A DNA stretch of 64,000 nt from Gemmatimonadota bacterium (GTDB lineage: Bacteria > Gemmatimonadota > Gemmatimonadetes > Palauibacterales > Palauibacteraceae). The position numbers were made by a program, and so were the translations under genes. The notes beneath the pieces were generated by a model. The model was given only the letters and a program-made list of their open reading frames with translations, did not search any database and was not told the origin of the DNA. The stretch spans positions 4,907 to 68,906 of the forward strand of contig JBDHIO010000009.1 of assembly GCA_039587355.1 (NCBI GenBank). The letters run 5' to 3'. Below are positions 1 through 15,364 of the stretch, piece by piece. How positions within the stretch are numbered: position 1 is the stretch's first letter; each line of letters starts with the position of its first letter.

Positions 1-269
1 GGTGCTGGCGTTTGTGTTCTTCAGGGTCTGAGGGTTGGGGCAGTTGGCGGGCCCCAGCTCACTCGCACGTGCTCCTAACCAAGCGTCTATCAGGGAGGCA
101 GGAAGACGGGTCGTTCGGGGTGCTTGCCATGCAGAAGTAGGATGGGATCAGGCTGGACTTCTGCGCAGGTCATCGCCGCTACAAGGTCAATCGCCCTGAC
201 ATCGACCTCTTGCCGCTGGACACCTTCACGGTTGGTGCAATCTTCTCGTTCTGAGACCATCCAGTCGGG

Positions 270-1844
270 TTACCACACACCAGCCCCGAACTCGATCACG
301 AAGTTGAGCCGATTGATGTCGGCGAAACCCTTGCTCTGAACGCCGACGCGAAGGCCCCAGAAGTCTGTCAGAAAGCTCGAGAACTGGGCCCTCAGCTTGA
401 TCCCCAGCTCAGCCGTGAAGTCGGTGCGACGTACGGTCCCGTCCGGCTCTTGTTCGTCAGTAGGTATCCCCGCACGGGCTAGCTCCGTCGAGTCATACGT
501 GGCGACCTCAACCCCCGCCGCGAGGTAACCATCGATCCAGCGCGATGCCGAGGTCGTGTAATGAGCCATCCACCCGAAGTCCGCCAGTTCGGTGCTCTTC
601 AGGTAGACACGGTTAACGATGAACCCGCCGGTCAACGGGTCCTCTACATTCTTGACAATGAGAAAAGGGAACGTGAACGAGACGCCCAGGTCGCCGTCGT
701 ATCTGGCCGCGATCCCGAACGATCGTAGGACCTCCGCTTCCCGAAACCACTCCTCAAACTCTACCGGGTCAGCGGATGTATCCAGTTCCGGCCAGCCTGG
801 ACTCTCATGCTTGGAGATGTAGTAGTGGAGGCCCTCCGGCTCCGGGACGTTGGGGCTGGTCAGCGCCAGTTCTGACGGCGGCAAGGGCCTCAGCTCGTAT
901 TCGACGTGAGGAAGCTCGTAGGCGCCCGTGCTGGCGAAGTCCGACCGGGCTTCGCTCTCCTCTGGGAGTGGGGGGTAGACCCTGTGCTCGGGTCGTCGGT
1001 CCTTGGCCATCCATGCTTCGTACCCGCCCCTAAACAGCGCCCCCGTGCTGATGATGTCGCGCACTCCCCAGGCGTCGTTTACGTGGCGGCTAACATCGTA
1101 GGCAGGCGTGTACGCGCCGTCGCTGTTCTTGTCGGTGGCAAGCGCGTGCTTACCCTCCTCGACCAGCAGGTGCATGGGGAACTTGGTCTGGTCGTCCACG
1201 TCGATGACGTTCCAAAACCAGACGATTCCGTGAGCCTTTGCTTTGACCACCGTGACCATCAACACGTAGTTCGTCTCCTTGCAGCTCGCTTCTTCGAAAC
1301 TGCCGAAGCCCGTGCGAGGGACGGTGACCCGGAACTCTGCGGCTTCCAGATCGTGTAGGTGCGCACCGAGGCCCCACTCCTCGCTCAGGTAGGCGAAGTA
1401 GGAAATCCGTAAAGCGCCAACCGTTCGGAAGTCGATGATCGATTGCCCGATGTCCTCCTGGTTGAGCGCTACGCCGTCATAGGGCGAGCCGCTGGTCGAG
1501 ACTACCTCTTCCACTTGGTAATAGACGACGGGCCGATCGGGAGAAGGCTCGTCGAAAGGGAGGGGTTCGGGAATCCGAATCGACGTTCCCGACTGACCCG
1601 TGCGGGTCCGAGCGGCCCGTGGTCCATATAGGAGCTGCTCGTCAGGAGAGAACCAGTAGACTGGAGCGATATGGGAGACCAGTTCCTGCACGGTCATCTG
1701 CTCCTTCGTCCCCCACCAGACGGAGCCCGGTACGTTCGAGAAATCGCAGGTGCCAGGAGTGAAGCCTTGCTGTGCCACCAGCTCTGCGGCGGGCGTCAGA
1801 CAGCAGAGGGCCAGGCCGAGGTGCCCGCTACGGATGCGAAACAT
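270..1844 (-). CDS. secreted / outer-membrane beta-barrel-like hypothetical protein
   Basis: Long ORF 270..1889. An internal Met gives the signal peptide MFRIRSGHLGLALCCLTPAAELVAQ. The C-terminus ...RLNFVIEFGAGVW ends in an aromatic residue as in OM beta-barrels. No family recognised. Confidence 0.5.
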   Translation of the reverse strand: MFRIRSGHLGLALCCLTPAAELVAQQGFTPGTCDFSNVPGSVWWGTKEQMTVQELVSHIAPVYWFSPDEQLLYGPRAARTRTGQSGTSIRIPEPLPFDEPSPDRPVVYYQVEEVVSTSGSPYDGVALNQEDIGQSIIDFRTVGALRISYFAYLSEEWGLGAHLHDLEAAEFRVTVPRTGFGSFEEASCKETNYVLMVTVVKAKAHGIVWFWNVIDVDDQTKFPMHLLVEEGKHALATDKNSDGAYTPAYDVSRHVNDAWGVRDIISTGALFRGGYEAWMAKDRRPEHRVYPPLPEESEARSDFASTGAYELPHVEYELRPLPPSELALTSPNVPEPEGLHYYISKHESPGWPELDTSADPVEFEEWFREAEVLRSFGIAARYDGDLGVSFTFPFLIVKNVEDPLTGGFIVNRVYLKSTELADFGWMAHYTTSASRWIDGYLAAGVEVATYDSTELARAGIPTDEQEPDGTVRRTDFTAELGIKLRAQFSSFLTDFWGLRVGVQSKGFADINRLNFVIEFGAGVW

Positions 1845-2084
1845 GGGCCTCCTTGAGTCAGGTGGTTCGTGGCGACGAGATCGTGGCAAAGTGCGGTCGG
1901 TCCAGTACTGGCAAAAGTCCCCGGATGTGATGCGGAGAATCCTAGGTCGGCCTCCGTCAGGCTCCTCCGCCTGCTTCTAGCGCCTGTTGTCCAGGCATGT
2001 GACGCCCGGACCCGTGGCGATTGCTCGCGTTCTTCGACGGATCCGATCAAATTGGGCGCCGCGGCAGAACCCTGTCGCGACTAG

Positions 2085-2128
2085 GGGCGAATAGCTCAGC
2101 CTGGTTCAGAGCGCCTGCCTTACAAGCA
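2085..2128 (+). pseudogene. truncated tRNA-Val, 5' part only (acceptor, D-arm, anticodon arm through CAAGCA); attL-like remnant
   Basis: GGGCGAATAGCTCAGCCTGGTTCAGAGCGCCTGCCTTACAAGCA is identical to nt 1-44 of the intact tRNA-Val at 10695 and then diverges (CCTGTGAGG). About 100 bp upstream (1986-2084) is also ~80% identical to the region upstream of the intact gene (TGTCCAGGCATGTGAC...GCGATTGCTCGCGTTCTTCGA...GCGCCGCGGCAG...CCTGTCGCGA). Confidence 0.75.
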
Positions 2129-2208
2129 CCTGTGAGGGATGGCCGGTGCGGGAACGGTACCGGCCTTGCGGTGCCCTTGTGTGCCGTCGGCGCCACCGGC
2201 GAGAGCCG

Positions 2209-3291
2209 CTACAGGGCGACGTCCCGGGCGTGTGAGGTGACGTGCTTCGCGACGAATGGGGAGGTCATCGCGCGAACTAGCGCGCTGTAGTCGAGCTGAA
2301 ACGCGACCTCCACGCCGACGGAGAGGCGGTCCTGGCCGGCATCCGCGACGAGGTGGTCGCTGCTGGCCCCGAGGATCGAGATTCCGGGAGGCGGAAGGAG
2401 GCCGTCCGGATCCGTGTCCTGCCGTCCGAGGGCGAGGATCAACCGCCAGCTGTCGCCCCGATACACGACAGTCGGTTTGTCCCCGAACGCGGTCTGCGCG
2501 ATCTCGCCCCATGGTTGCGACGGTTTGCGTTTCGACTCGATCACTTCGGCGACGAGCGTGATGGCGTCGGTATGCAATCCGTCGATGGGTCGGCGATGGA
2601 GGGTCTCGCGTCCGAGCAGGATGGACTCGCCAAGACGCAGATGGTTGATTCGGTGCATGTCCGCGCCGCTGAAGGCCCACTCGATGCTGGCGGAGTTGCC
2701 CCCGGACACGAGGCCGATAACCGGGCCGAAGGTCGTGTCGATGGAGTCGGCCAGCGCGGACAGTTCGACCATGTTCGTCCTGTCCGGCGCCACGCCGCTG
2801 TGGCAGGCCAGGTTGGCGCCGATGCCCTCGAGCGCGATGTTCGGCAGGCGCAGCGTCTCGCGCACGTGGAACTCGACGTCGCCCGGAAGGATGCCTTCGC
2901 GGAGATCCCCAAGCTCGACCATCAGGACAACGCGGTGTGTCCGCCCGGCCTGCCGGGCCGCGGACGAGAGCTTCCTGATGACATCGAGCTCGGTGTTGAA
3001 GCTCACGTCGGTCTGCGCCACGACTCGGTCGGCCTGGCTGAGCATCGGAGAGCGAATGAGCATCATCGGGGAACGCACTCCCGCGCGGCGCATCGACTCG
3101 ATGTTCTCGATGCGAGAGTCGCCGAGCGAACTCACGCCCGCCTGAACCAGCGCGCCGGCAATCTCGGGTGATCCGAGCGTCGCCTTCGTAACGCCCGACA
3201 CCGAGATGCCGCGGTCGGCCAGCCGTCCCACCAGGACGGCCGCGTTGTGTCGGATCTTGCCGAGGTCGATCTCCAGTCGCGGCGTGCTCAT
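2209..3291 (-). CDS. PLP-dependent alanine racemase-like enzyme (YhfX / amino-acid racemase-like family)
   Basis: 360-aa ORF. N-terminal alanine-racemase TIM-barrel-like region (MSTPRLEIDLGKIRHNAAVL...GVTKATLGSPEIA) with the C-terminal beta domain. The stop overlaps the start of the upstream gene by 4 nt. Confidence 0.75.
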   Translation of the reverse strand: MSTPRLEIDLGKIRHNAAVLVGRLADRGISVSGVTKATLGSPEIAGALVQAGVSSLGDSRIENIESMRRAGVRSPMMLIRSPMLSQADRVVAQTDVSFNTELDVIRKLSSAARQAGRTHRVVLMVELGDLREGILPGDVEFHVRETLRLPNIALEGIGANLACHSGVAPDRTNMVELSALADSIDTTFGPVIGLVSGGNSASIEWAFSGADMHRINHLRLGESILLGRETLHRRPIDGLHTDAITLVAEVIESKRKPSQPWGEIAQTAFGDKPTVVYRGDSWRLILALGRQDTDPDGLLPPPGISILGASSDHLVADAGQDRLSVGVEVAFQLDYSALVRAMTSPFVAKHVTSHARDVAL

Positions 3292-4493
3292 CGCGCGACG
3301 GCGGGCAGCTTCTCCTTCAGCTCGGGGAAGGCCGCGAGAACCATCTCGACCAGGCGCTCGCGCGGCCAGGTCAGCGCATCCGTCACAGGGATGCCGAGCT
3401 CGTCCTCGTACATCGCGATGGCTTCGGTGACCTCCGTGTCGGTCATGTTCTCGTGGTTGATCGTGAGACCGATGACCTTCGTGTCGGCAAAGGTCTGTAT
3501 CAGGTGGATCTCGGACGCGGCCGTTGGCATGGCCAGCGCGGGGAAGTCGCCGAGGCGATTCCGTCCTGGTGCGTGCTGCAGCACCACGCCTTCCGGGCGA
3601 CTACCGCGGAGAATGAACGTCGAGGTGAGGTAGGCAGGGTGGCTCAGCGCGCCCTGTCCCTCGACGACGATCACATCGGGACCCTCGCCTTCGAACGCTT
3701 CGACGACGGTGGCTTCCATCTCACCCGAACAGAACTGCGACGGAATGGCATCGAGCGCCACTCCGTAGCGAGCACCCTGGATCAAACCGGTCTGGCCGGT
3801 TCCGACCAGCACCGCGGTCAGGCCGCACTCGCGGAGAGCCTGCGTCAGGATCGTTGCCGTAGTGCGCTTGCCGATCGCGCCGTCGGTGCCTAGCACGGCG
3901 ATGCGCGGGCAGGTGACCTCGCTGATGCGACCGCTGAACATGCGCAGATCCTTCTTGGCCCGTGGCTTTCGGACGTCGAGAATCTCCACGCAGTTCTCCA
4001 CGCTCGCCGCGGCGAACTCCGGGTCGTCGTTCAGGAACTCGTGGAGACCGTTGACGACGTTGATGCCCAGCCCCATCGCCTCGAGCACGACGCGGCGCTC
4101 GTGCGGCGACAGAAGGCCGCTCGAGGGGGCCATCCCGAAGATGAAGTAATCCGGCACACCTCCGACGTGCTCCAGTGCGCTGACCAGGTCACGGCAGATG
4201 GGCGTGTCGTTCGGTCTGCCGTCGAGTACCGCGCCGGCATCAAGACCGACCTTCTCGCTGTCGATGACCGCCAGGATCTCATACCTGTCCGAGTGACGGA
4301 CGAGCCCGTTGGCGGTCTTTCCGTCGCTCGCGCCGAAGTTGGCCTCGCAGTAGACGACGGCTGTTGCGGCCCGGGGTGGTTGCCCGTCGATGTTGCCTGG
4401 CGACGGGTGTGTCGTCAGGTCGTTTCCTGGGGGCCGTCTCGGACCACGGGACGGACGCGACGGGATGGATTGCGGATCTCGGAACACGGTCAC
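3288..4493 (-). CDS. DUF1611 family protein (Rossmann-like N-domain plus P-loop-like C-domain)
   Basis: 401-aa ORF with a GTDGAIGKRTTA P-loop-like segment and the typical DUF1611 C-terminal half (PDVIVVEGQGALSHP). Forms an operon with the racemase-like gene via a 4-nt overlap. Confidence 0.75.
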   Translation of the reverse strand: MTVFRDPQSIPSRPSRGPRRPPGNDLTTHPSPGNIDGQPPRAATAVVYCEANFGASDGKTANGLVRHSDRYEILAVIDSEKVGLDAGAVLDGRPNDTPICRDLVSALEHVGGVPDYFIFGMAPSSGLLSPHERRVVLEAMGLGINVVNGLHEFLNDDPEFAAASVENCVEILDVRKPRAKKDLRMFSGRISEVTCPRIAVLGTDGAIGKRTTATILTQALRECGLTAVLVGTGQTGLIQGARYGVALDAIPSQFCSGEMEATVVEAFEGEGPDVIVVEGQGALSHPAYLTSTFILRGSRPEGVVLQHAPGRNRLGDFPALAMPTAASEIHLIQTFADTKVIGLTINHENMTDTEVTEAIAMYEDELGIPVTDALTWPRERLVEMVLAAFPELKEKLPAVAR

Positions 4494-4694
4494 TCCTCGA
4501 GTTGGGCTCAGAGGAGGCGACGGAATCGTGCCGGCCAGAGTTGGCCGGAATTCAACGAGAGGTCCCCGCTAAGTCGGTCTTGAAGCGGAGCCGCCACGGG
4601 AAGGCACTGCTTCCCTGAGCGAAATCCACCATAGACACTACCGTCGGGGAGCCTTCAAGACCAGATCGAGGGGAAGCCCGTCGACATCCGGAGG

Positions 4695-4791
4695 GCCTGC
4701 ATTTACGAGCAGGAAGTCGGGGGTTCGAACCGAAGCTCGACGTCAGCCGACCGAAGCTCGCCGAGGGAGCGAGGCCATCCCTCTTCGCCCC
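4695..4791 (+). pseudogene. tRNA-Val 3' part (anticodon arm, variable loop, T-arm, acceptor 3' strand) interrupted by a 46-nt insertion in the T-loop; attR-like remnant
   Basis: GCCTGCATTTACGAGCAGGAAGTCGGGGGTTCGAA [46 nt containing CCGAAGCTCG x2] ATCCCTCTTCGCCCC, compared with the intact GCCTGCCTTACAAGCAGGAAGTCGGGGGTTCGAATCCCTCTTCGCCCA. The discriminator A is replaced by C. Confidence 0.7.
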
Positions 4792-4813
4792 CATTATGTT
4801 GTCCCTCAGTCAC

Positions 4814-4856
4814 GGGCGAATAGCTCAGCCTGGTTTAGAGCACCTGCCTTACAAGC
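4814..4856 (+). pseudogene. second truncated tRNA-Val 5' part (diverged copy), 22 nt downstream of the 3'-part remnant
   Basis: GGGCGAATAGCTCAGCCTGGTTTAGAGCACCTGCCTTACAAGC has 2 mismatches to the intact gene and then diverges (GGCCCCGAG). There is no conserved upstream block. Confidence 0.7.
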
Positions 4857-5237
4857 GGCCCCGAGATCCCCCGATTCCCGGCATTTCTCCGTATTTCAAC
4901 GGGAAAGTACGGATCATATCCCGTACTTCGATCGTCGTCTCCGGGGGTGATCCGTATATCGACAGCCCCACGAACAGCCCCAGGTCCGTGAATCCAGGAG
5001 GTGCGGGTCGCTCGGGCCCCACCACGTTCGAGAGCTGGGGCATGCTCACCGCGACCCAGTGCCCTGGCGTAGACAGGGGACGCCAGCCGACAGACAGGCG
5101 TCGCCGTGGGAGTGTCGAATGGCGCAGATGCACCCAACGCCGGCATCATTACGCAACGTCTTTTCGTCAATACGCGAGTCATACGACAGCCACGGTCAGC
5201 CCAAAGACATTATCCAGAGAGATATGGGAGACTGCCA

Positions 5238-5720
5238 GTGGAACAACACGATGCGTTGCTCACTCTAAGTGAGATTGCAGCAGCATTCGTTGGGTTTTCG
5301 ACGATCGTGGTTGTTTTCAGGTCGAATCGTTCGGAACTCCAACGGTTTCGTCTGCGCGGCGTGGCCGAGATCGGCATCGCCGTCCTCTTCGGGGCGTTCT
5401 TGCCGCTCATGGTAGCGGGGCTGGTTTCTTCAGACTCTCAAGTCTGGCGCATCAGCAGCGTGATCTTCGCGCCGACAGCCCTGACTGGTTGGATCGTCTG
5501 GTCCCGGAGCGTGTCCCGAGCCGGTCACCCGCCGACCTTCGGAAAGCTGCCGTTCGCACCCGATGTCGTGGCCAACGTGGTGGGACAGGTGCTGCTGTGG
5601 TGGAACGTGATGGCCCCGACCCCGGCCGCCCCTACTCGATATGTGACGGCTCTGATGTCGTTTCTCATCATCGCAGCCATGAGTTTCGTCGCGTCGGCTT
5701 TCGGCGGAGCTGAGACCTAG
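5238..5720 (+). CDS. small integral membrane protein (about 4 TM helices), function unknown
   Basis: GTG-start ORF in the frame of ORF 5106..5720. Hydrophobic segments LLTLSEIAAAFVGFSTIVVVF, IGIAVLFGAFLPLMVAGLV, VIFAPTALTGWIVW and ALMSFLIIAAMSFVASAF. Lower-GC region (~50%). Confidence 0.45.
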   Translation: MEQHDALLTLSEIAAAFVGFSTIVVVFRSNRSELQRFRLRGVAEIGIAVLFGAFLPLMVAGLVSSDSQVWRISSVIFAPTALTGWIVWSRSVSRAGHPPTFGKLPFAPDVVANVVGQVLLWWNVMAPTPAAPTRYVTALMSFLIIAAMSFVASAFGGAET

Positions 5721-5811
5721 AGCGACGGAATTGAGGGGATAATGCCGAGTAGGGTGAGTTAGGAACAAGACCCTTGGACGTCACGGGACGGTTCTCTTCT
5801 CCCTAGGCGGG

Positions 5812-6270
5812 TTGCGGGGCGATGTGTCCGAGAGACTCCTGTATTCGACCGTAGCCCTAGAGACCGTGCTTCTTCGGAACGAAACCGAGCCGATTCAAAG
5901 TGCCCTGTCCGATCGCGTGGCCTTCCTCGTCACACAGGAACTGGAGGGATGGCTAGCCGTCGCAAAGGATGTGAAACGGGCGTACGGCCTTAGAAGTCGA
6001 TTCGTTCATCACGGTGTCGACGCAGTCGACTCGGAGGTTGTTAGTCGCTTCTTGCTGCATAGTTGGCTGGCGATTTGGACCCTGATCCACAACGCACATC
6101 GATTTGAAGATGCGAATGAACTGGCCGATTCGTTGGACAGATTGAAGTTCGGTGGGGGCCGCTACTTGATCAGGTCAGTGGGTCTGGCCTCCGCCACTGC
6201 ACCTAACAAAGTCCGCGGGCGGCTCCGGGTCTCTGGCCGGACCGCAGCGATGCCCTCGAGGGGACTATGA
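5812..6270 (+). CDS. hypothetical protein with an Rx4H (HEPN-like) motif, RSRFVHHG
   Basis: 152-aa ORF with a TTG/GTG start in lower-GC DNA. The only sequence hook is R-x4-H followed by H (LRSRFVHHG) in a predicted helical protein. Its stop overlaps the next ORF (ATGA). Confidence 0.45.
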   Translation: MRGDVSERLLYSTVALETVLLRNETEPIQSALSDRVAFLVTQELEGWLAVAKDVKRAYGLRSRFVHHGVDAVDSEVVSRFLLHSWLAIWTLIHNAHRFEDANELADSLDRLKFGGGRYLIRSVGLASATAPNKVRGRLRVSGRTAAMPSRGL

Positions 6271-6806
6271 GTCTTGAAGATCTAGCGCGAATCGGCGAGT
6301 TCGCGGGCGTGATCGCCGTCCTTGTCACTCTACTCTACCTGTCCATCCAGGTACGGCAGAGCATCCGAGAGACCCGTGATCAAACAGCCTGGAGGATCAC
6401 GGAATCACTCAACCAGTTTACGGTCGCGCTCACCTCCGACGGGGAGACCGCGGAGATCTGGTGTCGCGGGAACGACAACTTCGACGCGCTCGATCGCGTC
6501 GAGCGGGAGCGGTTCGTAGTCCTGGTGGCTCAATGGGGCAATGTCTTGATCGCTTTGTACCGCACGAGGGACACCTCCTCGATCCCCGCCGAATACTGGG
6601 ACCACAACCTGGAGACGTTTGCGATCTACTACGCCACCTATCCGGGATTTCGGAAGGCGGTCGAATACGTGAACGTGCCGGACTACCTCCTTAGAGAGGT
6701 CGTCGCCAGGGCCGAGCTCGGAGCAGGCGCGCCGGGCACAAATACCTCGCCAGCAGCGATGAACGAGCGAGCCGAAGGTTCCACATCGGCGGACGAGGAG
6801 GCATAG
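6267..6806 (+). CDS. hypothetical single-pass membrane protein
   Basis: 179-aa ORF. N-terminal TM helix IGEFAGVIAVLVTLLYLSIQV followed by a soluble domain. 4-nt overlap with the upstream ORF indicates translational coupling. Confidence 0.5.
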   Translation: MSLEDLARIGEFAGVIAVLVTLLYLSIQVRQSIRETRDQTAWRITESLNQFTVALTSDGETAEIWCRGNDNFDALDRVERERFVVLVAQWGNVLIALYRTRDTSSIPAEYWDHNLETFAIYYATYPGFRKAVEYVNVPDYLLREVVARAELGAGAPGTNTSPAAMNERAEGSTSADEEA

Positions 6807-7191
6807 CCTGGGGTCGCCGCAAGGACCGTCCGTGAGAGCGAGAGGTCCGGAGATGAAGCAGACAAGCGTCGGTGGTGTGATTCAGATCTTCGCCAACGTC
6901 GGCGTGATCCTGAGCGTTTCTCGCCATTCAGATCGGCCCAAGCAAGCGTCCGAAGCCCCGCCGACACCGGACCACCCCTCAAACCACGCCACCCGAATTC
7001 CCTCTAGATCGCCGACCCCGACCCCCCAATCCGATTAGATCGACCCACTGTCCCTTTGGGGATGCAGCTCCTAGCGTGAATCGTTCAGATTAAGGGAAGG
7101 GGCGACTGCTGACATCCCCGTCCAGCAATCCATGTATTAGTTGGATGGCTCGGAACCGACCGTGGGATTGCGAGTCAAGGAGATGAAGATC

Positions 7192-8085
7192 ATGTCCACC
7201 ATTCGCTCGCCGCTACTCGTGGCCGCAGCGCTCACCCTCCTGCCTGCCGCGGTCACGGCTCAGGGCAGGGTGGAAAAGAACGTTGTCGTGGGCACGTGGT
7301 CTGGTCTGGCCCTGGTGATGGACGTCTACCATCCCGAAGATCCGAATGGCTACGGCATCGTATACATTGCCGGGAGTGGTTGGACGAGGCCTTTGTCTTA
7401 CGATGGTGCCCTTCTGACCGAACGGGGCGAGTCGCAGCGGTCGCCGCTCGTGGATGCAGGCTACACCGTCTTTTCCCTAACTCACCGAGCTCTTCCACGA
7501 TTCCATTTTCCTGCTCCACTGGAAGATGTGCAGCGGGCCGTCCGATTCATCCGATTCCACGCTGGGGAGTATGGCATTGACCCGCAGCGAATCGGGGCCA
7601 TGGGCGGTTCATCTGGGGGAAACCTGGCCCTCCAACTAGGCGTGCTAGATGGTGAAGGGGATCAAGACGGCCCTGATCCCGTCAATCGGGTGAGCGCGAA
7701 GGTCCAGGCCGTCGTCGCACAGGCAGCCCGAGCCGACCTGACTCATGCCGATGGGTCTTTCAGCTTCATGACATCTGTGTTGATGATCGGGGCTCGCCCT
7801 TCGCGGGACGTTGAGTCGCAGGTGGGCCGAAAGTGCTGGGAGGCGTCACCGGTCAACCACGCTTCGAGCGACGACCCTCCGACGCTGCTTCTCCACGGTG
7901 ACATGGATGAAGTCGTCCCATACCACCAATCGGAACTCATGCTCGCTGCGTTGCAGGAGCACGAGGTGGAGGCTCGCTTGCTCCGGATTCCTGGTGGCGG
8001 CCACGGTCCATCGTTTCCCGGGGCCACAGACCCGCCGGACCACATTCGTGCCGTGATCGATTGGTTCGAGCGTCTGAAGCGATAG
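7192..8085 (+). CDS. secreted alpha/beta-hydrolase (esterase/peptidase S9-like)
   Basis: Signal peptide MSTIRSPLLVAAALTLLPAAVTAQ. Nucleophile elbow GGSSGGN (G-x-S-x-G), a C-terminal HGDMDEVVP acid and GGGHG His motif. RBS AAGGAG 9 nt upstream of ATG 7192. Confidence 0.8.
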   Translation: MSTIRSPLLVAAALTLLPAAVTAQGRVEKNVVVGTWSGLALVMDVYHPEDPNGYGIVYIAGSGWTRPLSYDGALLTERGESQRSPLVDAGYTVFSLTHRALPRFHFPAPLEDVQRAVRFIRFHAGEYGIDPQRIGAMGGSSGGNLALQLGVLDGEGDQDGPDPVNRVSAKVQAVVAQAARADLTHADGSFSFMTSVLMIGARPSRDVESQVGRKCWEASPVNHASSDDPPTLLLHGDMDEVVPYHQSELMLAALQEHEVEARLLRIPGGGHGPSFPGATDPPDHIRAVIDWFERLKR

Positions 8086-8192
8086 GTCGGGTTCTACCTC
8101 GCCAGTGCGGACACTTCAGACTAGGCTTGGGCTTCCCACGGGCCCTAGGTGTCTACGCGGGTCTGGAGCAAGACCGCTCGCGGTCGCCCGCG

Positions 8193-8618
8193 CTACCTCA
8201 CGTATTCGAGCGAGTTTCCCGTCTGGCATTCATCCAAGACCAGCCGGTCAACCAGGACCGCCACGAGGTCCGAGCACCCGCACCCTTCGGGAACGAGAAA
8301 GAGGTTGTCCCGGGACGGTTCCCAGCCACCGGTCGTCACTCGGCTCTGCGTCGACACCTGCCCACCCTCCGTGACCCGTAGTCCTAGGGTATGCTCGAAA
8401 CTGCGGTCCGCACGAAGTACAAGCGTGCCCTGGGTCACCTCGACGAATCGCTGGCCTTCCTCAATGAAGGGGGCGGGCAGGTCACCGTCGTTGACGGACC
8501 GGAGTTGATATGTGCCAACGACGCTCGGCGGATCACCACCCGCGCCGGTGGGGTTATCACTTCCTCCACAAGCACAGATCCAAAGAAGGAGGATCGTGCC
8601 CAGTCCTCGGCTGCACAT
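8193..8618 (-). CDS. putative lipoprotein, function unknown
   Basis: Internal Met of ORF 8193..8825 gives MCSRGLGTILLLWICACGG (signal peptide plus Cys). 141 aa. Confidence 0.5.
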   Translation of the reverse strand: MCSRGLGTILLLWICACGGSDNPTGAGGDPPSVVGTYQLRSVNDGDLPAPFIEEGQRFVEVTQGTLVLRADRSFEHTLGLRVTEGGQVSTQSRVTTGGWEPSRDNLFLVPEGCGCSDLVAVLVDRLVLDECQTGNSLEYVR

Positions 8619-8922
8619 CCGCGGCTCCTTCGACGTTCGTCTGCCCCGCTTTCTCCTACTTTGTAGCGGAACATCCGTGCCGGCCTGCACGCCCGCGCCC
8701 AGCGGTCGAAGGAGCGGACCCCACCCGGGTTGGTTGGCGGAGGGGCATTCCGCCCCACTCGCTGTACCGGGGCGAAACAACCCGCCGTGGGACGGGCTGG
8801 CTTCTCGGCCTGTGTGAGAGAGCATCCCGGAGGCGTGGAGCGCAACCCCTAGCCAGTCCCCGAACGCTTCGGCGCTCCGTCACGAGTGGTTTGAAGGCCC
8901 TGAGGTCATCACCGTCAACGCT

Positions 8923-9213
8923 ATGAACCCGACATCGACGCACGTTGAGGAGGCCATCCGTTCCAGTGGTCTCCGCGTGACCTACACGCCCTGCGTTCTG
9001 ATGCTGCGGAAGCCTCCGCCCGAAGCCCTGAGCAAGATTGGAAACCTGCCGGACGCGGAACGTCAGAAGTCATTCCGACTGCTAATCTCAATCCTCGGCG
9101 TGGCTGATTCGGAACGGAGAGCCGGGTGCGGCGATAACTGCGCCCACTGGTGGAATCGCGACCTTCGTGATGAAGCGGTCGTCCGGCAGATTCTCGCGGA
9201 GGGTGCGGCCTAA
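8923..9213 (+). CDS. small hypothetical protein
   Basis: 96-aa ORF in lower-GC island DNA. No recognisable motif. Confidence 0.3.
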   Translation: MNPTSTHVEEAIRSSGLRVTYTPCVLMLRKPPPEALSKIGNLPDAERQKSFRLLISILGVADSERRAGCGDNCAHWWNRDLRDEAVVRQILAEGAA

Positions 9214-9396
9214 CAGACGCGGTGGGGGCACCTCATGTCCGGCGCGCCCTCGCCGGGCCCGTTTAGGGTTGGTTGGAAGGTGTCGTCGTCGGGGGGGGGT
9301 CGGGAGGGTCGTAAGCCAGGACTCCTGGAGCCGTGCCTGGAGGTTGGTAGCGGCCAAGGCGGGACAAGCGCACGCCCTTCGTGGGCCCGCTCATGT

Positions 9397-9640
9397 CGTC
9401 CCTCGCCAAGCCGCGATCGTTTCCGAATCGAAGTGCACGTCCAACTGTGGAAAGGCGATCGTGATGCCCGCGTCCCTGAGAGCCCACCAGATCGCTTCGT
9501 GCAGATCAGAGCTGCGATGGAGCCGATTCCATGGGTCGTCGAACCACACCGACACTTCAAAAGCGATTGCTACTGGCGCGGTAAGCGCCCAGCTCGCGCG
9601 CTTCGCTCGCGGTCCGCATCTTGGTCGCGCAGCAGAATCG
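9397..9640 (-). pseudogene. C-terminal fragment of an MscS-family mechanosensitive channel gene (remnant)
   Basis: The minus-strand translation ...AIAFEVSVWFDDPWNRLHRSSDLHEAIWWALRDAGITIAFPQLDVHFDSE* aligns with the MscS C-terminal domain ([41 protein letters not shown]). The upstream ~200 aa of MscS are absent; that DNA is occupied by a + strand ORF. Confidence 0.45.
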
Positions 9641-9739
9641 CAAGTCGGTTAGAACGCGTTCGAGGAGCTGGTCATCTCAACACCAAAGATCCCGTGGCCG
9701 CGCATCCTAGTAGAGGGAGCGGTAATCGTCGCCTCGATC

Positions 9740-10363
9740 TTGCTTGCGTTCGGCGTCGATGCGGCTTGGGACGGCCGAGCGGAAAGGCAACGTCGCGATG
9801 CCATGCTCGTGGCACTTGCCGGCGACATGGCCTTGGCGAAAGACGAGATCGATCGCGTCGCTGGCTATCACTCCATTGGACGAAGTGCCGCTGAAGACCT
9901 GCTCAGGTACGAGGATGTCCCTGCGGGGCAGGAGGCTCAGTCTGTCGTTGATTCCCTGGTCGGAGCGGTCTCGTTCGGGGCGGCCAGCTATGATGCGCCC
10001 TTGGGCGCGGTTGGAAGTCTCATAAACTCCGGCGACTTCGAACTCCTTAATGATCCGGCCTTGGCGGCCGACTTAACCGCGTTCCCCGCTTTAATCGCCA
10101 ACCTCGAGCGTGAGCAGAGTTTCCTCGCACCGGCGATCGCGGACTTGGCCGTCTACCTTGGGTCCGAGGGAGTCGATATGAGCCACCTGCAGACCGAGGT
10201 GCCTTGGCAGACCCGCCCCACGGAGGCATTCGCGCTCCTTGCGTCCCCACGCTTCAGGGGCATCATCGGCGAATTCTATATCTCGTACCGTAACACCTTG
10301 GGCGCGCTCGCCTCGATCCGCGAAGCGCTCGCCCGGATGGAGTCACGCCTGCCTGTCTCATGA
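9740..10363 (+). CDS. hypothetical protein with an N-terminal hydrophobic segment
   Basis: 207-aa ORF (TTG start in the track). The frame is open upstream to ~9653 and encodes a TM-like stretch (VIVASILLAFGV), so the true start is uncertain. No family recognised. Confidence 0.45.
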   Translation: MLAFGVDAAWDGRAERQRRDAMLVALAGDMALAKDEIDRVAGYHSIGRSAAEDLLRYEDVPAGQEAQSVVDSLVGAVSFGAASYDAPLGAVGSLINSGDFELLNDPALAADLTAFPALIANLEREQSFLAPAIADLAVYLGSEGVDMSHLQTEVPWQTRPTEAFALLASPRFRGIIGEFYISYRNTLGALASIREALARMESRLPVS

Positions 10364-10694
10364 GCCGCGGAAAGCTTCGGGCTATGCGTTCTAACAAGCG
10401 ATTGCTGCTGACGGCCCAGCTGTAGTCTCCCGCGCTTCGCGCGCCCCGCCTACGATGTCCGCAGCAGAGTCGCAGAACCTTTAGGCTGCCGGTGAGGGGT
10501 TTGGTTCGACATCACAACCGACGACATCCGCTAAACAGATCGAGGTTCTCTACGCCGCTGGAGTGGACCCCACGGATGCCTGTCGAGTGGCGCCAGCTGT
10601 CCAGGCATGTGACACGAGGACACTGAGCGATTGCTCGCGTTCTTCGATCGGTACAATCAGATTGTGCGCCGCGGCAGGATCCTGTCGCGAACTC

Positions 10695-10770
10695 GGGCGA
10701 ATAGCTCAGCCTGGTTCAGAGCGCCTGCCTTACAAGCAGGAAGTCGGGGGTTCGAATCCCTCTTCGCCCA
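10695..10770 (+). tRNA. tRNA-Val (anticodon UAC)
   Basis: Cloverleaf read directly: acceptor GGGCGAA/TTCGCCC, D-arm GCTCAGCCTGGTTCAGAGC, anticodon arm CCTGC-CTTACAA-GCAGG (anticodon TAC), T-arm GGGGGTTCGAATCCCTC, discriminator A. CCA is not encoded. Confidence 0.9.
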
Positions 10771-10796
10771 TATGATGCGGGTGTCGATCGGGCACC

Positions 10797-10846
10797 GAAG
10801 AGGGATCGGCGGACGCGCAGCGTCGTAGCCCATCCCTCTTCGCCCA
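10797..10846 (+). repeat. hairpin repeat copy 1 ending in the tRNA-Val 3' end (GAAGAGGGAT..loop..ATCCCTCTTCGCCCA)
   Basis: 10-bp perfect inverted repeat GAAGAGGGAT/ATCCCTCTTC around a ~25-nt loop. The last 15 nt are identical to the tRNA-Val 3' terminus. Confidence 0.7.
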
Positions 10847-10888
10847 TGCGTCATCCCCCCATGTGTCATTCCCTCGATCCGCCTGCTC

Positions 10889-10937
10889 GAAGGGGATCGG
10901 CGGACGCAGAGCGTCGCAGCCCATCCCTCTTCGCCCA
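10889..10937 (+). repeat. hairpin repeat copy 2 (GAAGGGGAT...CCATCCCTCTTCGCCCA)
   Basis: About 90% identical to copy 1, 43 bp downstream of it. Confidence 0.7.
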
Positions 10938-11295
10938 AATGAGCCTGGCTCCGCAGATCCTCCGGCAGTTGGGGACAATGTGCCGCGCGAAAGAGCCCCT
11001 TCGTCGGGATACTTCGGCCCACTCACCGGAGCAGGTCCTCGAGCAGGAACGCTGGGATCGCCAGGGGGCGTAGGGGGACCCGGGGGGTTCGCGCCAGATG
11101 ATGCCGTGGGCATGATACCCGCCTCCTTCCAGTCGGTACTTCTCCTGGGGAAGCTGCATGTCTATCAAGGGCGCCTCCGTTCTCCACGATTCGCAGAGCC
11201 CTGGTTCCGGCTTTTCCACGAGGCGGACGGGTGATGGGGCCGAGAGACCGGTTCCCAGCATCGGAAGAGGTGAATCGGACTGGAAGGAGGCTCGG

Positions 11296-11817
11296 ATGTT
11301 GAAGAAAGCCACGCTGATCATCGCGGCCTTACTGCTCACCGCGGGCGCTCTGGATGCTCAGGAGCACCACCGAAGAGGCCTCTGGGGAGGTGTCGGTTTT
11401 GGATGGGCATCCCTCAACTGCTTCGACTGTGGCGCGGATGGAAGCGAGAGTGGCTGGGGAGGAGCCGGTCGTCTCGGAGGCACGGTCTCACCCAGCTTCC
11501 GGCTGGCCGCCGGTACGAACACCTGGAACGAGAGTGAAGGTTCTGTCACGGTCCAGGCAGGGTCGCTGGAGCTACAGGGCTTCTGGTTTCCGGGCGCTGG
11601 CGACTTCTTCGCGCTCGGAGGCGCAGGTCTGGGGTACGCGGCTGTCGATTGGGACATCGAAGACACGTACTTCGCCTTCACCGCCGGAGCGGGATACACG
11701 ATCAATCTGGGCGAAAGCAAGGCGTGGGCGCTCGTGCCCGAGGTTTCGCTCACGACGTTCGCGAACGATGCTCTGACGTACTACGTGAACCTGAACTTCA
11801 GCTTCTGGTGGAACTGA
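11296..11817 (+). CDS. small outer-membrane beta-barrel protein (OmpW/OMP_b-brl-like)
   Basis: Signal peptide MLKKATLIIAALLLTAGALDAQ. Gly/aromatic-rich alternating strands. C-terminal ...NLNFSFWWN. RBS AAGGAGG 5 nt upstream. Confidence 0.7.
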   Translation: MLKKATLIIAALLLTAGALDAQEHHRRGLWGGVGFGWASLNCFDCGADGSESGWGGAGRLGGTVSPSFRLAAGTNTWNESEGSVTVQAGSLELQGFWFPGAGDFFALGGAGLGYAAVDWDIEDTYFAFTAGAGYTINLGESKAWALVPEVSLTTFANDALTYYVNLNFSFWWN

Positions 11818-11894
11818 CCTTCTGCTGAAGCAGGAGTATCAAGGACAACTTCCGCCCCGCGGTCCAGCGGGGCGGCCCCCCGTCTTTCGGCCAC

Positions 11895-11928
11895 TCGGAA
11901 CGTCGTAGCCCATCGCTCCTCGCCCATT
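11895..11928 (+). repeat. degenerate third copy of the tRNA-3'-end repeat
   Basis: CGGAACGTCGTAGCCCATCGCTCCTCGCCCAT versus CGCAGCGTCGTAGCCCATCCCTCTTCGCCCAT (~80% identical). Lies just downstream of the OMP gene. Confidence 0.5.
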
Positions 11929-12010
11929 ACAACCATCGAAACCCTCTCAAACGTCCCACACGTATAGACCCGTATCCGCATGGCCGTAATACCGCCCCTG
12001 GAGGTGAGCA

Positions 12011-13012
12011 GTGATTGAATGGATCAAGACTCGTTCGAAGCGTGACCTCGTATTGTCTCTCGTAATCGCAGGGGTCTTCTTCGTGTTCGCGGGCGCCTTC
12101 GTCCGCGGCGTGTTCAGCGAGCGGCACTACAGCTCCGAGTACAGCTCCGGACACAACTACGAGTACGAGTACTCGGGCGGCATGCTCTTCGATGAGTCGT
12201 TCGCCGTAGCTCCCGGGGCACTGCTCGTCGTGCGGGTTTCCGACCTCGACGTGGTCGTTTCCACCACGTCCGGCAGAGAGGCCACCGTCCGCCTCGACCT
12301 CGATGAGGGCGAGGGCGTATCAGGCAATGCCCTCGAGGCCATGGGCTTCCGGGTAGAGCGCACGAGCGAGGGCCTCGAGATCACGACGGAGGGCAACGAT
12401 CGCGGGCGGCACGACGACTTCGACGGGACGCTCATGGTTACCGTGCCGACGCAGTTCGATGTACAGGTGCGCACGGGTGACGGTGACGTGGCTGTCGAGT
12501 CGGTCGAGGGCTCCGTGATGCTCAACACGGGCGACGGCGACATCGCGCTCGGTGGCGCGCTCGGGCCCGAAGTGATGATCCAGACGGGTGACGGCGATGT
12601 GGCGGTCGGAGGCGTGGGAAGCGCGGACATCAAGATCCAGACGGGTGACGGTGACGTGGCGCTTGGCCGGCTCGAGGCCGAGCAGGTGCAGGTCCGCACC
12701 GGCGACGGCGACATCGTGATCGCCGAGATGTCCGGTGCGCTCAAGGCGTCGACCGGCGACGGCGACGTGATGCTGCATGTCGGCAGCTTCCAGGGCGTCG
12801 AGATCTCTACGGGCGACGGTGACGTCACCCTGTACGCTCCGTCGTCTCTCGCGGCCGACGTATCGATCATCGGCGGCGAGCTCGTCCTCGGTGAGGCGTT
12901 CGCCCTTCCGGCGACGATCGAGGACCGGCGGGTCGAAGGTCAGCTGAACGGCGGCGGACCGAACCTCCGCATTCGGGTGGGCGACGGAACGATCCGGCTG
13001 ATCGAGCGCTAG
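12011..13012 (+). CDS. DUF4097-type beta-strand repeat protein (putative adhesin / Toastrack family) with N-terminal TM anchor
   Basis: N-terminal TM helix LVLSLVIAGVFFVFAGAFV followed by about 8 tandem ~17-aa repeats carrying TGDGDV/I (coding 12470-12850). GTG start with RBS GGAGG upstream. Confidence 0.7.
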   Translation: MIEWIKTRSKRDLVLSLVIAGVFFVFAGAFVRGVFSERHYSSEYSSGHNYEYEYSGGMLFDESFAVAPGALLVVRVSDLDVVVSTTSGREATVRLDLDEGEGVSGNALEAMGFRVERTSEGLEITTEGNDRGRHDDFDGTLMVTVPTQFDVQVRTGDGDVAVESVEGSVMLNTGDGDIALGGALGPEVMIQTGDGDVAVGGVGSADIKIQTGDGDVALGRLEAEQVQVRTGDGDIVIAEMSGALKASTGDGDVMLHVGSFQGVEISTGDGDVTLYAPSSLAADVSIIGGELVLGEAFALPATIEDRRVEGQLNGGGPNLRIRVGDGTIRLIER

Positions 13013-13034
13013 ACGCGAAACGCCAGCTACGCAA

Positions 13035-13070
13035 AACGGGGCGTCCTCCGAAGAGGGCGCCCCGTTTCTG
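13035..13070. terminator. bidirectional Rho-independent terminator hairpin between convergent genes
   Basis: AACGGGGCGTCCTC-CGAA-GAGGGCGCCCCGTT: a ~14-bp GC-rich stem (1 mismatch) with a tetraloop, followed by TTTCTG on + and TTTTGCG on -. Confidence 0.6.
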
Positions 13071-13092
13071 CATCCGTCAGGTCCCGGCAGGA

Positions 13093-13314
13093 TCAGAAGA
13101 GCTTCAACACCCGCCGAAGCGCGAATAGTGCGACGGCGACGGCCCCGACGAGAATCAGATCCGTCGGTCGATCGGCCGAACGGCCACCGCCACCGGACGC
13201 CTCGTCCGTGGTCGTTTCCGCCTGATCACCGTGGAACCCGCAATACTCCGATCCCTCGTTCGCGTCACGTTTGCAACGCTCGCCCGATTTGGTCATGCCG
13301 TGGCACTGCGCCAT
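13093..13314 (-). CDS. small tail-anchored protein with a CxxC/C..H zinc-ribbon-like N-terminus
   Basis: 73-aa ORF MAQCHGMTKSGERCKRDANEGSEYCGFHG...LILVGAVAVALFALRRVLKLF with a C-terminal TM helix. It is the only recognisable ORF at the 3' end of the Arg-rich 13093..13983 frame. Confidence 0.4.
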   Translation of the reverse strand: MAQCHGMTKSGERCKRDANEGSEYCGFHGDQAETTTDEASGGGGRSADRPTDLILVGAVAVALFALRRVLKLF

Positions 13315-13376
13315 GTCGCTATTCCTCCGGTTCGACTGGGACACCTGTACACTACGCACCGGCCGTGCCGTCGGAT

Positions 13377-14276
13377 TCACTCGCCCCCGCGGTACGCGGC
13401 CTCGATGAAGCGCGCCGCGGACCGTCCGAACCGATTCGCGATTTCGGGCGGCATCTCGTCGATGATCTGTCTCAGGTCTCTGCCCGCGTCCGTCGCCACG
13501 CGAACGTAGTCGATCGTCAGCCGCAGGCCCTCGACGTAGCTCCGGAGCTCTTCGACGGTTCCCGGACGTCCGTGGCCGGGAACGATCGTCACGTCGTCCG
13601 GCAGCAGCTCGAGAAAGGACGCGAGGGCTGCTTCGACTCCTTGCAGCGATCCTCCGGTATCCAGATCCGGAGCGATCCATCCCTCGGGCCTCCAGAGGTC
13701 CCCGGTGGCGGCTACGCCGGCTTCGGGCCAGTACACGATCGCGTCGGAGTCGGTATGTCCCCTCACGTGGAGGATCTCGATCGTCTGACCGTTGAAATGC
13801 AGGGACACGCGGTCCGAAAAGGTCACGGTCGGCCAGAACGGTTCCGGCAGGGCGGGGAACGTCTGCTGGACGAGGAATTCGAGAGTCTGGTCCTCCTGAA
13901 TCCGGGACCGGAGGGTTCCGGGGCCCAACACCACGGCCGTTTCCGAGAACCGGTCGTTGCCGCCCAGGTGGTTCTGGTGCCAATGGGTGTTCGCGACGTA
14001 CCGGACGTCATCGACCCCGAGATCGCCGAGCGCCGCCACGAGATCGGTCGATATGGAGTCGGCCATGGTATCGACGAGAAAGGTCCCGTCTCCTCCCCGA
14101 AACACGATCGTGTTCCCGGACCCCTCGTTCGGGGAGAGGACCGTGAACCCGTCCGCGAGCTCGAACGAGCGGATTCGGTCCTGCCCCGCGGTGGCCGTCG
14201 AAAGGGCGGCGAGCGCGGTCAGCGAGAGGACGAACGGACGAAGAGGGTTGCTCAAGGGGTTCTCCTGCGGTTTCAT
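13377..14276 (-). CDS. secreted MBL-fold metallo-hydrolase
   Basis: Signal peptide MKPQENPLSNPLRPFVLSLTALAALSTATAGQ. Metallo-beta-lactamase motif THWHQNHLGG (H-x-H-x-x-H) with downstream His/Asp ligands (HVRGHTDSD, VPGHG). Confidence 0.75.
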   Translation of the reverse strand: MKPQENPLSNPLRPFVLSLTALAALSTATAGQDRIRSFELADGFTVLSPNEGSGNTIVFRGGDGTFLVDTMADSISTDLVAALGDLGVDDVRYVANTHWHQNHLGGNDRFSETAVVLGPGTLRSRIQEDQTLEFLVQQTFPALPEPFWPTVTFSDRVSLHFNGQTIEILHVRGHTDSDAIVYWPEAGVAATGDLWRPEGWIAPDLDTGGSLQGVEAALASFLELLPDDVTIVPGHGRPGTVEELRSYVEGLRLTIDYVRVATDAGRDLRQIIDEMPPEIANRFGRSAARFIEAAYRGGE

Positions 14277-14340
14277 CAGCGTGGCTCGGGCAGCGCCGCG
14301 GTCGGCACGCCGCAAGGAGAGAAGATACGGGAGGTCCGCG

Positions 14341-14745
14341 ATGACGTGCACACGTGCCGGTCGGCGGCGTCGGTTTCCGGCGGGTGCCTGCATCGCGGCC
14401 ATCCTGGCCGCGGGCTGCGCCTCGGCAGGCGTCATCGAACGAACGTACACGCACACCGCCCGGTACCGTGTTTCGTGCAGCGTCAGCGACGAGTGTCGAG
14501 TCCAGTACCTCGATCAGGAAGGGGTGCTCAGGGCATCCGACATCGTCGGAGAGTGGCATTTCGAGCGTGGCGTCGATCCGGGCGATCGGATGTGGATTCG
14601 CGCTTCGGGCGGAGGGTGTCCACCGCGTCCGCTGCGCGTGGAGATCCTGCTGGATGAGACGACGGTCGCCCGGGACCTGACGAGAGCGGAACACGCCTCA
14701 CGCTGCGACTGGATAATGGCCGAAACGGAGTTCGTCGTCCCCTGA
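14341..14745 (+). CDS. small lipoprotein, function unknown
   Basis: ATG within ORF 13957..14745 gives MTCTRAGRRRRFPAGACIAAILAAGCASAG (lipobox LAAGC). 134 aa. Divergent from the MBL gene. Confidence 0.5.
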   Translation: MTCTRAGRRRRFPAGACIAAILAAGCASAGVIERTYTHTARYRVSCSVSDECRVQYLDQEGVLRASDIVGEWHFERGVDPGDRMWIRASGGGCPPRPLRVEILLDETTVARDLTRAEHASRCDWIMAETEFVVP

Positions 14746-14769
14746 CCGGGACGATCTGACGGGGAGACC

Positions 14770-15342: not shown

Positions 15343-15364
15343 GCCGGGGCGGCCGCGCACGCCT

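Follow-up and report, generated by a model that had tools for sequence, protein, structure and literature searches.

A composite island on the 5' side of a tRNA-Val(UAC) gene in a Gemmatimonadota bacterium

Results

In a 64,000-nt stretch of a Gemmatimonadota genome (assembly GCA_039587355.1, contig JBDHIO010000009.1, positions 4,907 to 68,906 of the forward strand; hereafter the window), two genes for an alanine-racemase-like enzyme and a DUF1611 protein are flanked by pieces of a tRNA-Val gene. This 2.6-kb cassette proved to be one unit, in the middle position, of a composite island at least 15 kb long that contains four tRNA-Val 5' halves and has one intact gene at its right end. From left to right the island consists of a 5' half (#0), the left arm and cargo of a unit that we call Ea, an upstream block (U1) and 5' half #1; the racemase/DUF1611 cassette; a 3' piece of the tRNA, a 22-nt spacer and 5' half #2; and the left arm and cargo of a second unit, Ec, followed by upstream block U3, the intact gene, in which 5' half #3 is joined to the tRNA 3' half, and a set of 3'-end units. 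We consider it probable (about 0.6) that repeated recombination in the anticodon loop has stacked recombinase-less segments on the 5' side of the tRNA-Val(UAC) gene. The sharp ends of the 5' halves, the conserved arms and the recurrence of the arrangement in another genome together make up what, judging from the sequence, is the signature of site-specific recombination at this loop. The original prediction had proposed att-like (attachment-site-like) integration of an isolated cassette that inactivated one tRNA-Val copy. The recombination signature in the anticodon loop stands, whereas an isolated single insertion is refuted by the stack with its four 5' halves: the neighbouring unit Ea has the cassette's left tRNA piece as its right arm, and the right piece is followed, after 22 nt, by 5' half #2.

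The tRNA-Val gene and its pieces

The sole tRNA called in the window by ARAGORN and Rfam is an intact tRNA-Val(TAC) on the plus strand (10695-10770; Rfam tRNA, 73 bits). It lies 5.9 kb to the right of the 3' piece and has the same 5' half and upstream block as the cassette's left side, which contradicts the earlier statement that no reconstituted tRNA is present. 5' half #1 (2085-2128, plus strand) is, as had been predicted, a tRNA-Val 5' part; it is identical to 10695-10738 in 44 of 44 positions and covers the tRNA from its start up to base three in the 3' strand of the anticodon stem. 5' half #2 (4814-4857, plus strand) starts 22 nt past the 3' piece and differs from the intact gene by two substitutions, one of which, a T in the D loop, is also present in related genomes. 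The fourth 5' half, #0 (43/43 identical), lies outside the window, about 4.0-4.2 kb left of position 1, and was found in another assembly (locus L098, 14365-14536 including the left arm that follows it). All four are direct copies on the same strand, they break off in the anticodon stem at points that differ by no more than one base (AAGC or AAGCA), and the intact gene forms the right end of the run.

The right-hand piece, which had been described as one 3' part at 4695-4791, is tRNA-derived but not contiguous. Its first part (4695-4729, plus strand) comprises the anticodon arm, variable loop, T stem and the T loop up to TTCGAA; it is exact over 22 of 22 positions from AGCAGG to TTCGAA, and its anticodon arm has a loop of 8 nt (one extra base) and one A-to-G change. 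Then follow 47 nt of non-tRNA sequence (4730-4776, plus strand) and a copy of the tRNA 3' end, ATCCCTCTTCGCCC with CCA instead of A (4777-4791, plus strand), which belongs to the 3'-end unit family (D3); 4777-4790 correspond to the last 14 nt of the tRNA, and the end reads CCCCCA where the tRNA has CCCA. The predicted overlap of the two tRNA pieces was found as well, the anticodon arm being present as GCCTGCCTTACAAGCA at the left and GCCTGCATTTACGAGCAGG at the right end of the cassette. These matches are above chance, as predicted: a 22-mer of the 5' half occurs three times in the window against zero expected from shuffles, and the local alignment of the 3' piece to the tRNA was better than that of all 1000 shuffled sequences (1000/1000). 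Neither the 47-nt insert nor the 22-nt spacer is significantly similar to the sequence 3' of the intact tRNA. A derivation of 3' piece and spacer as a tandem duplicate of the tRNA with its 3'-end unit was considered and is unsupported, with no significant similarity downstream of the intact gene.

Units Ea and Ec

Ea and Ec have both ends in common and carry unrelated cargo. On the right, each ends in an upstream block of repeat family D2 joined to a 5' half: U1 (1980-2084, plus strand) forms the right arm of Ea and U3 (10590-10694, plus strand) that of Ec. The resulting repeat (1980-2128 and 10590-10738) is 149 nt long with 85% identity, made up of about 79% in the upstream part (~105 nt) and 100% in the tRNA part, in line with the roughly 100 bp of conserved upstream sequence noted before. 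U3 is presumably the promoter region of the working tRNA gene, in which TTGCTC-N15-TACAAT might be read as the promoter. On the left, the Ec arm (4858-5020, plus strand) is about 160 nt long with four CCGTA/TACGG motifs and is ~88-90% identical to the arm after 5' half #0 (89.6% over 173 nt including the 5' half).

Ea comprises the first 2.1 kb of the window plus about 4.1 kb further left, where L098 shows tannase, porin and pentameric-channel-like genes as its cargo. Since the fourth 5' half and the left arm lie outside the window, the first 2 kb are island cargo and not native flank. This right part of Ea (1-1979, minus strand) encodes a protein of 524-539 aa and unknown function (270-1889, minus strand), whose homologues in relatives (55-69% identity) were never adjacent to a tRNA. 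A search for an empty site by way of this protein proved unworkable, the gene being Ea cargo.

Ec extends from 4858 to 10738. Its cargo (5021-10589) has a G+C content below that of the core genes and consists of small proteins of unknown function together with an alpha/beta hydrolase (7141-8085), a lipoprotein (8193-8825, minus strand) and a DUF5958 protein (8923-9213); none of the Ec open reading frames (ORFs) had a PHROGs or PADLOC match. Two of the small ORFs overlap (5812-6270 and 6267-6806, both plus strand) and gave no significant Pfam and no NCBIfam, PHROGs or PADLOC match; the sequence RSRFVHH in the first reads like the Rx4H motif of HEPN proteins. If Ec exists as a circle, U3 and the 5' half would be joined to GGCCCCGAGATCCCCCG...

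The racemase/DUF1611 cassette

The two genes are both on the minus strand and overlap by ATGA; the coordinates and gene assignments originally given, including the 4-nt overlap, agree with the Pfam results. The first (2209-3291) encodes a pyridoxal phosphate (PLP)-dependent racemase-like enzyme (PF01168 Ala_racemase_N, E=2.9e-25) that is closest to the ornithine racemase Orr, with 356 bits to NCBIfam NF040742 and hence below its cutoff of 480. The second (3288-4493) encodes a DgcN-like DUF1611 protein (PF07755 and PF17396, DUF1611_N + DUF1611, E=9e-65), again scoring below the membership cutoff of the N-acetyltransferase DgcN family (NF041892, 155 bits, cutoff 480); its GTG start at 4493 lines up with the ATG start of its homologues. 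Immediately upstream, a conserved operon leader of about 90 nt (4494-4585, minus strand) reaches the DUF1611 start codon. It is foldable into three hairpins, the last of which pairs CUCCUC with the GAGGAG ribosome-binding site, and has the consensus CTTAGYGGGGACCTCTCGTTGAC..CCGGCC..GGCCGGCACGATCCCGTCGCCTCCTCTGAGCCCAACTCGAGGAG-N8-ATG. In the alignment 85% of cells pair, compared with 35-52% when the partners are slid, and little covariation was seen. Rfam gave no match to the leader, which we regard as a candidate regulatory RNA of the two-enzyme module.

DUF1611 proteins with 74-85% identity are encoded in 80 metagenome loci (L007-L086), 76 of which also contain the racemase and 54 of which keep the leader upstream of the DUF1611 start; the leader was also found in L104 (4762-4846). 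The DUF1611 protein is unusually conserved, with variability confined to its first ~50 residues. Nucleotide similarity to the other loci extends from 2245, inside the racemase gene, to about 4580, and to 4653 in the closest loci, and no flanks are shared across the 80 loci; the leader goes along with the two genes. The source labels of DUF1611 homologues with 75-83% identity include Alpha- and Gammaproteobacteria, Acidimicrobiales and Myxococcota, and a conjugative Vibrio plasmid bears the same gene pair and, in the expected position, a weak match to the leader. As the same leader and gene pair occur across several phyla by source label and on a plasmid, the operon is a self-contained, widely exchanged module, compact and mobile-looking. 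DUF1611 copies with ~60% identity were also seen on Vibrio and roseobacter plasmids.

In the window the module is tightly bounded, with 80 nt between the racemase stop codon and 5' half #1 and about 40 nt between the end of the conserved upstream sequence (4653) and the 3' piece. The 80-nt spacer (2129-2208) contains a G+C-rich hairpin that folds no better than shuffled sequences and resembles neither the Ea/Ec left arm nor any other fetched locus. Apart from a contig of the same organism (L006), none of the 80 loci has tRNA-Val(TAC) pieces or flanks like those in the window, and the proposed search for the cassette in other tRNA contexts thus yielded none. In three loci the racemase gene is directly followed by an intact, convergently oriented tRNA-Val(GAC) (L021, 12158-12232; L052, 2457-2531; L084, 3375-3449), at the position where the window has the 5' half. 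We took this for a probable coincidence rather than a related case, as the tRNA is a different one and the lineage is low in G+C.

Independent assembly and related genomes

Loci L098 and L099 derive from an independent assembly of another sample (GCA_039586785.1 and JGI 3300041074). They match positions 1-10364 of the window at 99.96%, extend 4200 nt further left and end in 5' half #0, thereby reproducing both cassette junctions and every other junction from #0 to 10364. The left junction of the cassette is also present in the same-organism contig L006. A second genome with the same kind of left junction is L096 (JBFILW010000189.1, 4685-4900, minus strand), an unrelated Gemmatimonadota metagenome-assembled genome (MAG), in which a degenerate 5' half and a left arm recognisably similar to that of Ec lie 4.7 kb upstream of an intact tRNA-Val; the cargo there, an extracytoplasmic function (ECF) sigma factor and a TPR Ser/Thr kinase, is unlike that of Ea and Ec.

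Orthologues of a metallo-hydrolase in the right flank led to the related loci L101 and L102/L103, which have one intact tRNA-Val(TAC) each near the edge of synteny. Synteny with the window runs from about position 24.3 kb (22.2 kb for L102) down to 11926/11927, the outer edge of the last 3'-end unit, and in L097 tRNA-Val directly adjoins the DUF4097 gene of this flank; the tRNA thus occupies its native position, and what varies is the DNA 5' of it. The tRNA-Val of L101 has a U-like upstream region, and a segment just upstream of it (20022-20497) matches the Ec lipoprotein gene (8150-8625) over 476 nt at 91.8%, as against 77% for the backbone, which suggests recent exchange. A search for an empty site in related genomes had been suggested as a check. 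In each of thirteen other Gemmatimonadota loci, the sequence fetched contains a single intact tRNA-Val(TAC) and lacks the cassette; no cassette-free site was found in a close relative. A scan of the genome collection with the 5' half gave 11 loci in ten Gemmatimonadota MAGs, all single intact genes and many at contig ends; they lack the upstream block and come from no close relative.

The downstream side and the right flank

Directly after the intact gene, two 3'-end hairpin units of family D3 stand in tandem with a spacing of 91 nt (10771-10937, hairpins at 10802-10846 and 10893-10937, plus strand). The 3' strand of each repeats the last 15 nt of the tRNA (GAAGAGGGAT...ATCCCTCTTCGCCCA), and the first unit folds well (z = -2.96). 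A single unit occupies the same place in L102 (15233-15309) and L103 (5605-5704), with 96% identity over 52 nt and 89% over 157 nt including the tRNA, so that it is a conserved feature and no private scar; it may serve as terminator, processing signal or attachment site for T-loop-specific elements. A degenerate unit follows at 11882-11926 (plus strand), and synteny with the relatives starts just to the right of it.

Around 11927-13012, all that separates the DUF4097 gene from the tRNA in the window is a gene for a 219-aa protein of unknown function, without a family match, with 3'-end units on either side. In L101 and L102 the same interval holds an aminotransferase gene and more, in L101 also an IS3-family transposase. 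With this difference in gene content, the 3' side of the tRNA is variable too. The DUF4097 gene contains six 37-nt repeats (12461-12833, mostly 54-57 nt spacing) that encode a GDGD motif, as in an ordinary repeat protein. Further right, the twenty ORFs tested between 16 and 64 kb represent ordinary core chromosome with mraW, mur ligases, ftsW, ftsZ, lysyl-tRNA synthetase and a TRAP transporter.

Discussion

How the stack may have formed

We propose that the tRNA-Val(UAC) gene is a recombination hotspot at which foreign segments have been spliced into the anticodon loop several times. Members of the Ea/Ec family would bring a left arm of ~160 nt and, as right arm, an upstream block with a tRNA 5' half; with each such insertion the resident 5' half would move left, and a functional gene would re-form at the right-hand end. 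The crossover in the anticodon loop would be the work of a tyrosine recombinase acting on circular segments, encoded elsewhere in the genome, on a helper element or on an element since lost. The racemase/DUF1611 operon with its leader may have entered by recombination of this kind too, either alone on a small circle or within a somewhat larger unit, in an insertion that would rebuild no tRNA; we regard such a cassette insertion as plausible. A cassette-free site would read U1 and the 5' half directly joined to AGGAAGTCGGGGG..., and a circularised cassette would have the junction ...GACATCCGGAGGGCCTGCATTTAC(A/G)AGCACCTGTGAGGGATGG....

The conservation of the 5' halves bears on the age of these events. 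At ~21% divergence, the chance of no change in 44 nt is 0.79^44, or ~3e-5 by our arithmetic; as the 5' halves are perfect despite upstream blocks diverged to this degree, they must have belonged to working genes until recently, up to their displacement. The original prediction had considered an old, decayed or non-autonomous insertion. The pristine 5' half (44/44) is not old and decayed; the 3' piece is damaged and may not be its original partner.

Two histories appear about equally likely. In the first, Ea rebuilt a second, tandem tRNA-Val copy, which was then split by a small circle with only an anticodon-arm-like site; the 7-nt overlap, TAC(A/G)AGC, differs by one base between the two sides. 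In the second, a single tRNA gene took up three units, the middle one consisting of the cassette, a 3' relic, the spacer and 5' half #2. That the 3' piece starts exactly at the anticodon stem beside the cassette end speaks for the first, or for such an event in a donor genome; the second is favoured because the 13 related loci have one tRNA-Val(TAC) each and because the loops of the 5' halves are identical.

Several observations weigh against recurrent recombination at the anticodon loop. The cassette has neither of the Ea/Ec arms, and its third-position G+C (0.82-0.86) is core-like, whereas most Ec ORFs are below 0.70. The loops at its two ends differ (CTTACAA versus ATTTACGA), and the 3' piece is damaged while 5' half #1 is perfect; the two flanking pieces may thus be non-reciprocal products and not those of one event. 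Among the loci fetched we found no empty site, no circular junction and no second tRNA-flanked copy of the cassette, and a promoter tool detected, by its criteria, no promoter in the upstream blocks. Finally, neither a Phage_integrase domain nor that of another recombinase was found in the larger ORFs of 1-16000, and no recombinase in the twenty ORFs (250-524 aa) tested beyond 16 kb. The earlier statement that no integrase is present therefore holds for the ORFs tested, including a six-frame scan of the gene-poor region 8600-9810. The public gene calls of L098, which cover the island from #0 rightwards, and the larger ORFs of L096 likewise contain no recombinase, four viral-contig scans for the 5' half and left arm gave no matches, and no autonomous relative came to light in these scans or in the loci fetched. 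With no recombinase in any unit, the enzyme would have acted in trans.

Alternative explanations

The main rival explanation, though an unlikely one, is that the operon is the surviving cargo of a larger island with its own arms and integrase, trimmed by deletion, and that the 2.6-kb segment never moved as a unit. Decay to integrase-less remnants is the usual account of tandem structures (PMC5704250; 10.1101/2020.12.28.424599), and the internal replacement of 47 nt in the 3' piece attests that deletions or insertions have happened here. The fit between the module and the tRNA pieces, with 80 nt on one side and ~40 nt on the other, is however very tight; trimming would need two deletions, each ending exactly at the anticodon arm, and no gene fragments are left.

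It is improbable, in our estimate, that the operon and 5' half #2 with its upstream sequence are original to this place and that Ea was put to their left by homologous recombination among tRNA pieces. Such a native neighbour would account for the core-like G+C pattern of the cassette genes and for the D-loop T that #2 shares with related genomes, and in L102 a motif resembling the 3' end (GGAGGCCATCCCTGTTCGCCTC) precedes the tRNA by ~23 nt. The 3' part of the tRNA should then follow the right arm of Ea, but the region of the racemase terminator is found there instead; no racemase/DUF1611 pair lies near tRNA-Val in the sequence fetched for L101, L102 and L097; and, by inspection alone, the spacer that precedes the tRNA in L102 has no obvious similarity to that in the window.

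An assembly artefact, in which the repeated tRNA pieces misled the metagenome assembler, would agree with the observation that contigs of the source and related genomes often end at tRNA-Val or its pieces. We consider it very improbable: the exact repeats are only 44 nt long and the longer arms 10-20% diverged, the separate sample behind L098/L099 reproduces the junctions from #0 to 10364, and L006 the left junction of the cassette.

A working split, permuted or intron-containing tRNA-Val with halves joined at the RNA level can be dismissed, since the superficially permuted order of 3' piece, 22 nt and 5' half (4695-4857) is offset by an anticodon loop of 8 nt, a T loop enlarged by 47 nt and a changed 3' end, the region 2085-4857 contains no tRNA call by ARAGORN or Rfam, no intron family match and no complete cloverleaf, the insert is an operon on the opposite strand, and an intact gene exists.

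Comparison with known systems

Recombination at the anticodon loop, which we prefer over these alternatives, places the locus in a known class of genomic islands, with an unusual layout. As in the islands at tRNA genes (tDNAs) collected in Islander, an intact tDNA and same-orientation fragments of the same tRNA (here 10695-10770 with the fragments at 2085, 4814 and #0) bound the units, the breakpoint has its centre at the anticodon, the gene is restored by the island, and several units are stacked at one tDNA. Relative to the intact gene, 5' fragments are found upstream and 3' fragments, namely the 3'-end units of 10802-10937 and 11882-11926, downstream; the upstream 3' piece (4695-4791) is an exception to this rule unless it comes from a second or former tRNA copy. 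The anticodon sublocation is used by about half of tDNA islands, but islands displacing a 5' tDNA fragment account for only 159 of 3919, and stacks of three or more units are rare (4 cases) (PMC4383910). Unlike in most Islander islands, the displaced fragments here are 5' halves, so that an incoming island must also supply the upstream region, and the tyrosine integrase gene that Islander requires was not found in the ORFs tested in the window, L098 and L096.

Cis-mobilisable elements (CIMEs), defined in Streptococcus as decayed integrative and conjugative elements, stack by accretion at att sites (PMC5704250; Pavlovic 2004 and Bellanger 2011 cited there). Ea and Ec resemble them in having kept attL- and attR-like ends without genes for integration or transfer, in their tandem arrangement and in depending, by our proposal, on the recombinase of another element; the racemase cassette retains only the duplicated anticodon arm and has no shared arms. 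Unlike for CIMEs, no parent element with recombination or transfer genes was seen in the three instances here, and mobilisation is putative. Tycheposon islands of Prochlorococcus are likewise stacks of elements parted by partial tRNAs, with degraded remnants (10.1101/2020.12.28.424599); like the present locus they grow beside a specific tRNA by repeated integration, leave partial tRNA copies between the elements and accumulate cargo. Tycheposons carry their own tRNA-specific tyrosine recombinase and a replication/packaging module, of which no unit here has either, and phylum and target tRNA differ. With integron cassettes the units share small, promoter-poor or self-contained cargo without a recombinase, stacked at one site and putatively moved in trans. 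They differ in size (2.6 to ~6.3 kb with several genes each) and in their bounding repeats, which are tRNA-derived halves and arms and, by appearance and without an attC model, not attC-looking; no IntI gene was found, the window ORFs tested containing no integrase.

Implications

The racemase/DUF1611 module with its leader, the function of which is unknown, may hold wider interest than the tRNA pieces beside it. For the locus itself, the repeats break metagenome assemblies, and island finders that require an integrase would miss the structure. A further-reaching idea, which we put forward as a rather unlikely one, is that Gemmatimonadota have a family of recombinase-less cassettes consisting of a left arm, any cargo, and a promoter region with a tRNA-Val 5' half, which a recombinase encoded elsewhere would routinely insert in trans at the anticodon loop of tRNA-Val. 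If true, this would be an integron-like array anchored on a tRNA gene, exchanging the promoter and 5' half of an essential tRNA with each insertion, and it could also take up arm-less modules such as the racemase/DUF1611 operon. The island documents tRNA-anchored growth in Gemmatimonadota, a phylum known mostly from metagenomes, in a minority mode in which the incoming DNA replaces the 5' half of the tRNA and its upstream region and not the 3' end. As all three of the three units of the arm-bearing family are without a recombinase, it is a candidate for a system in which cargo is mobilised exclusively in trans.

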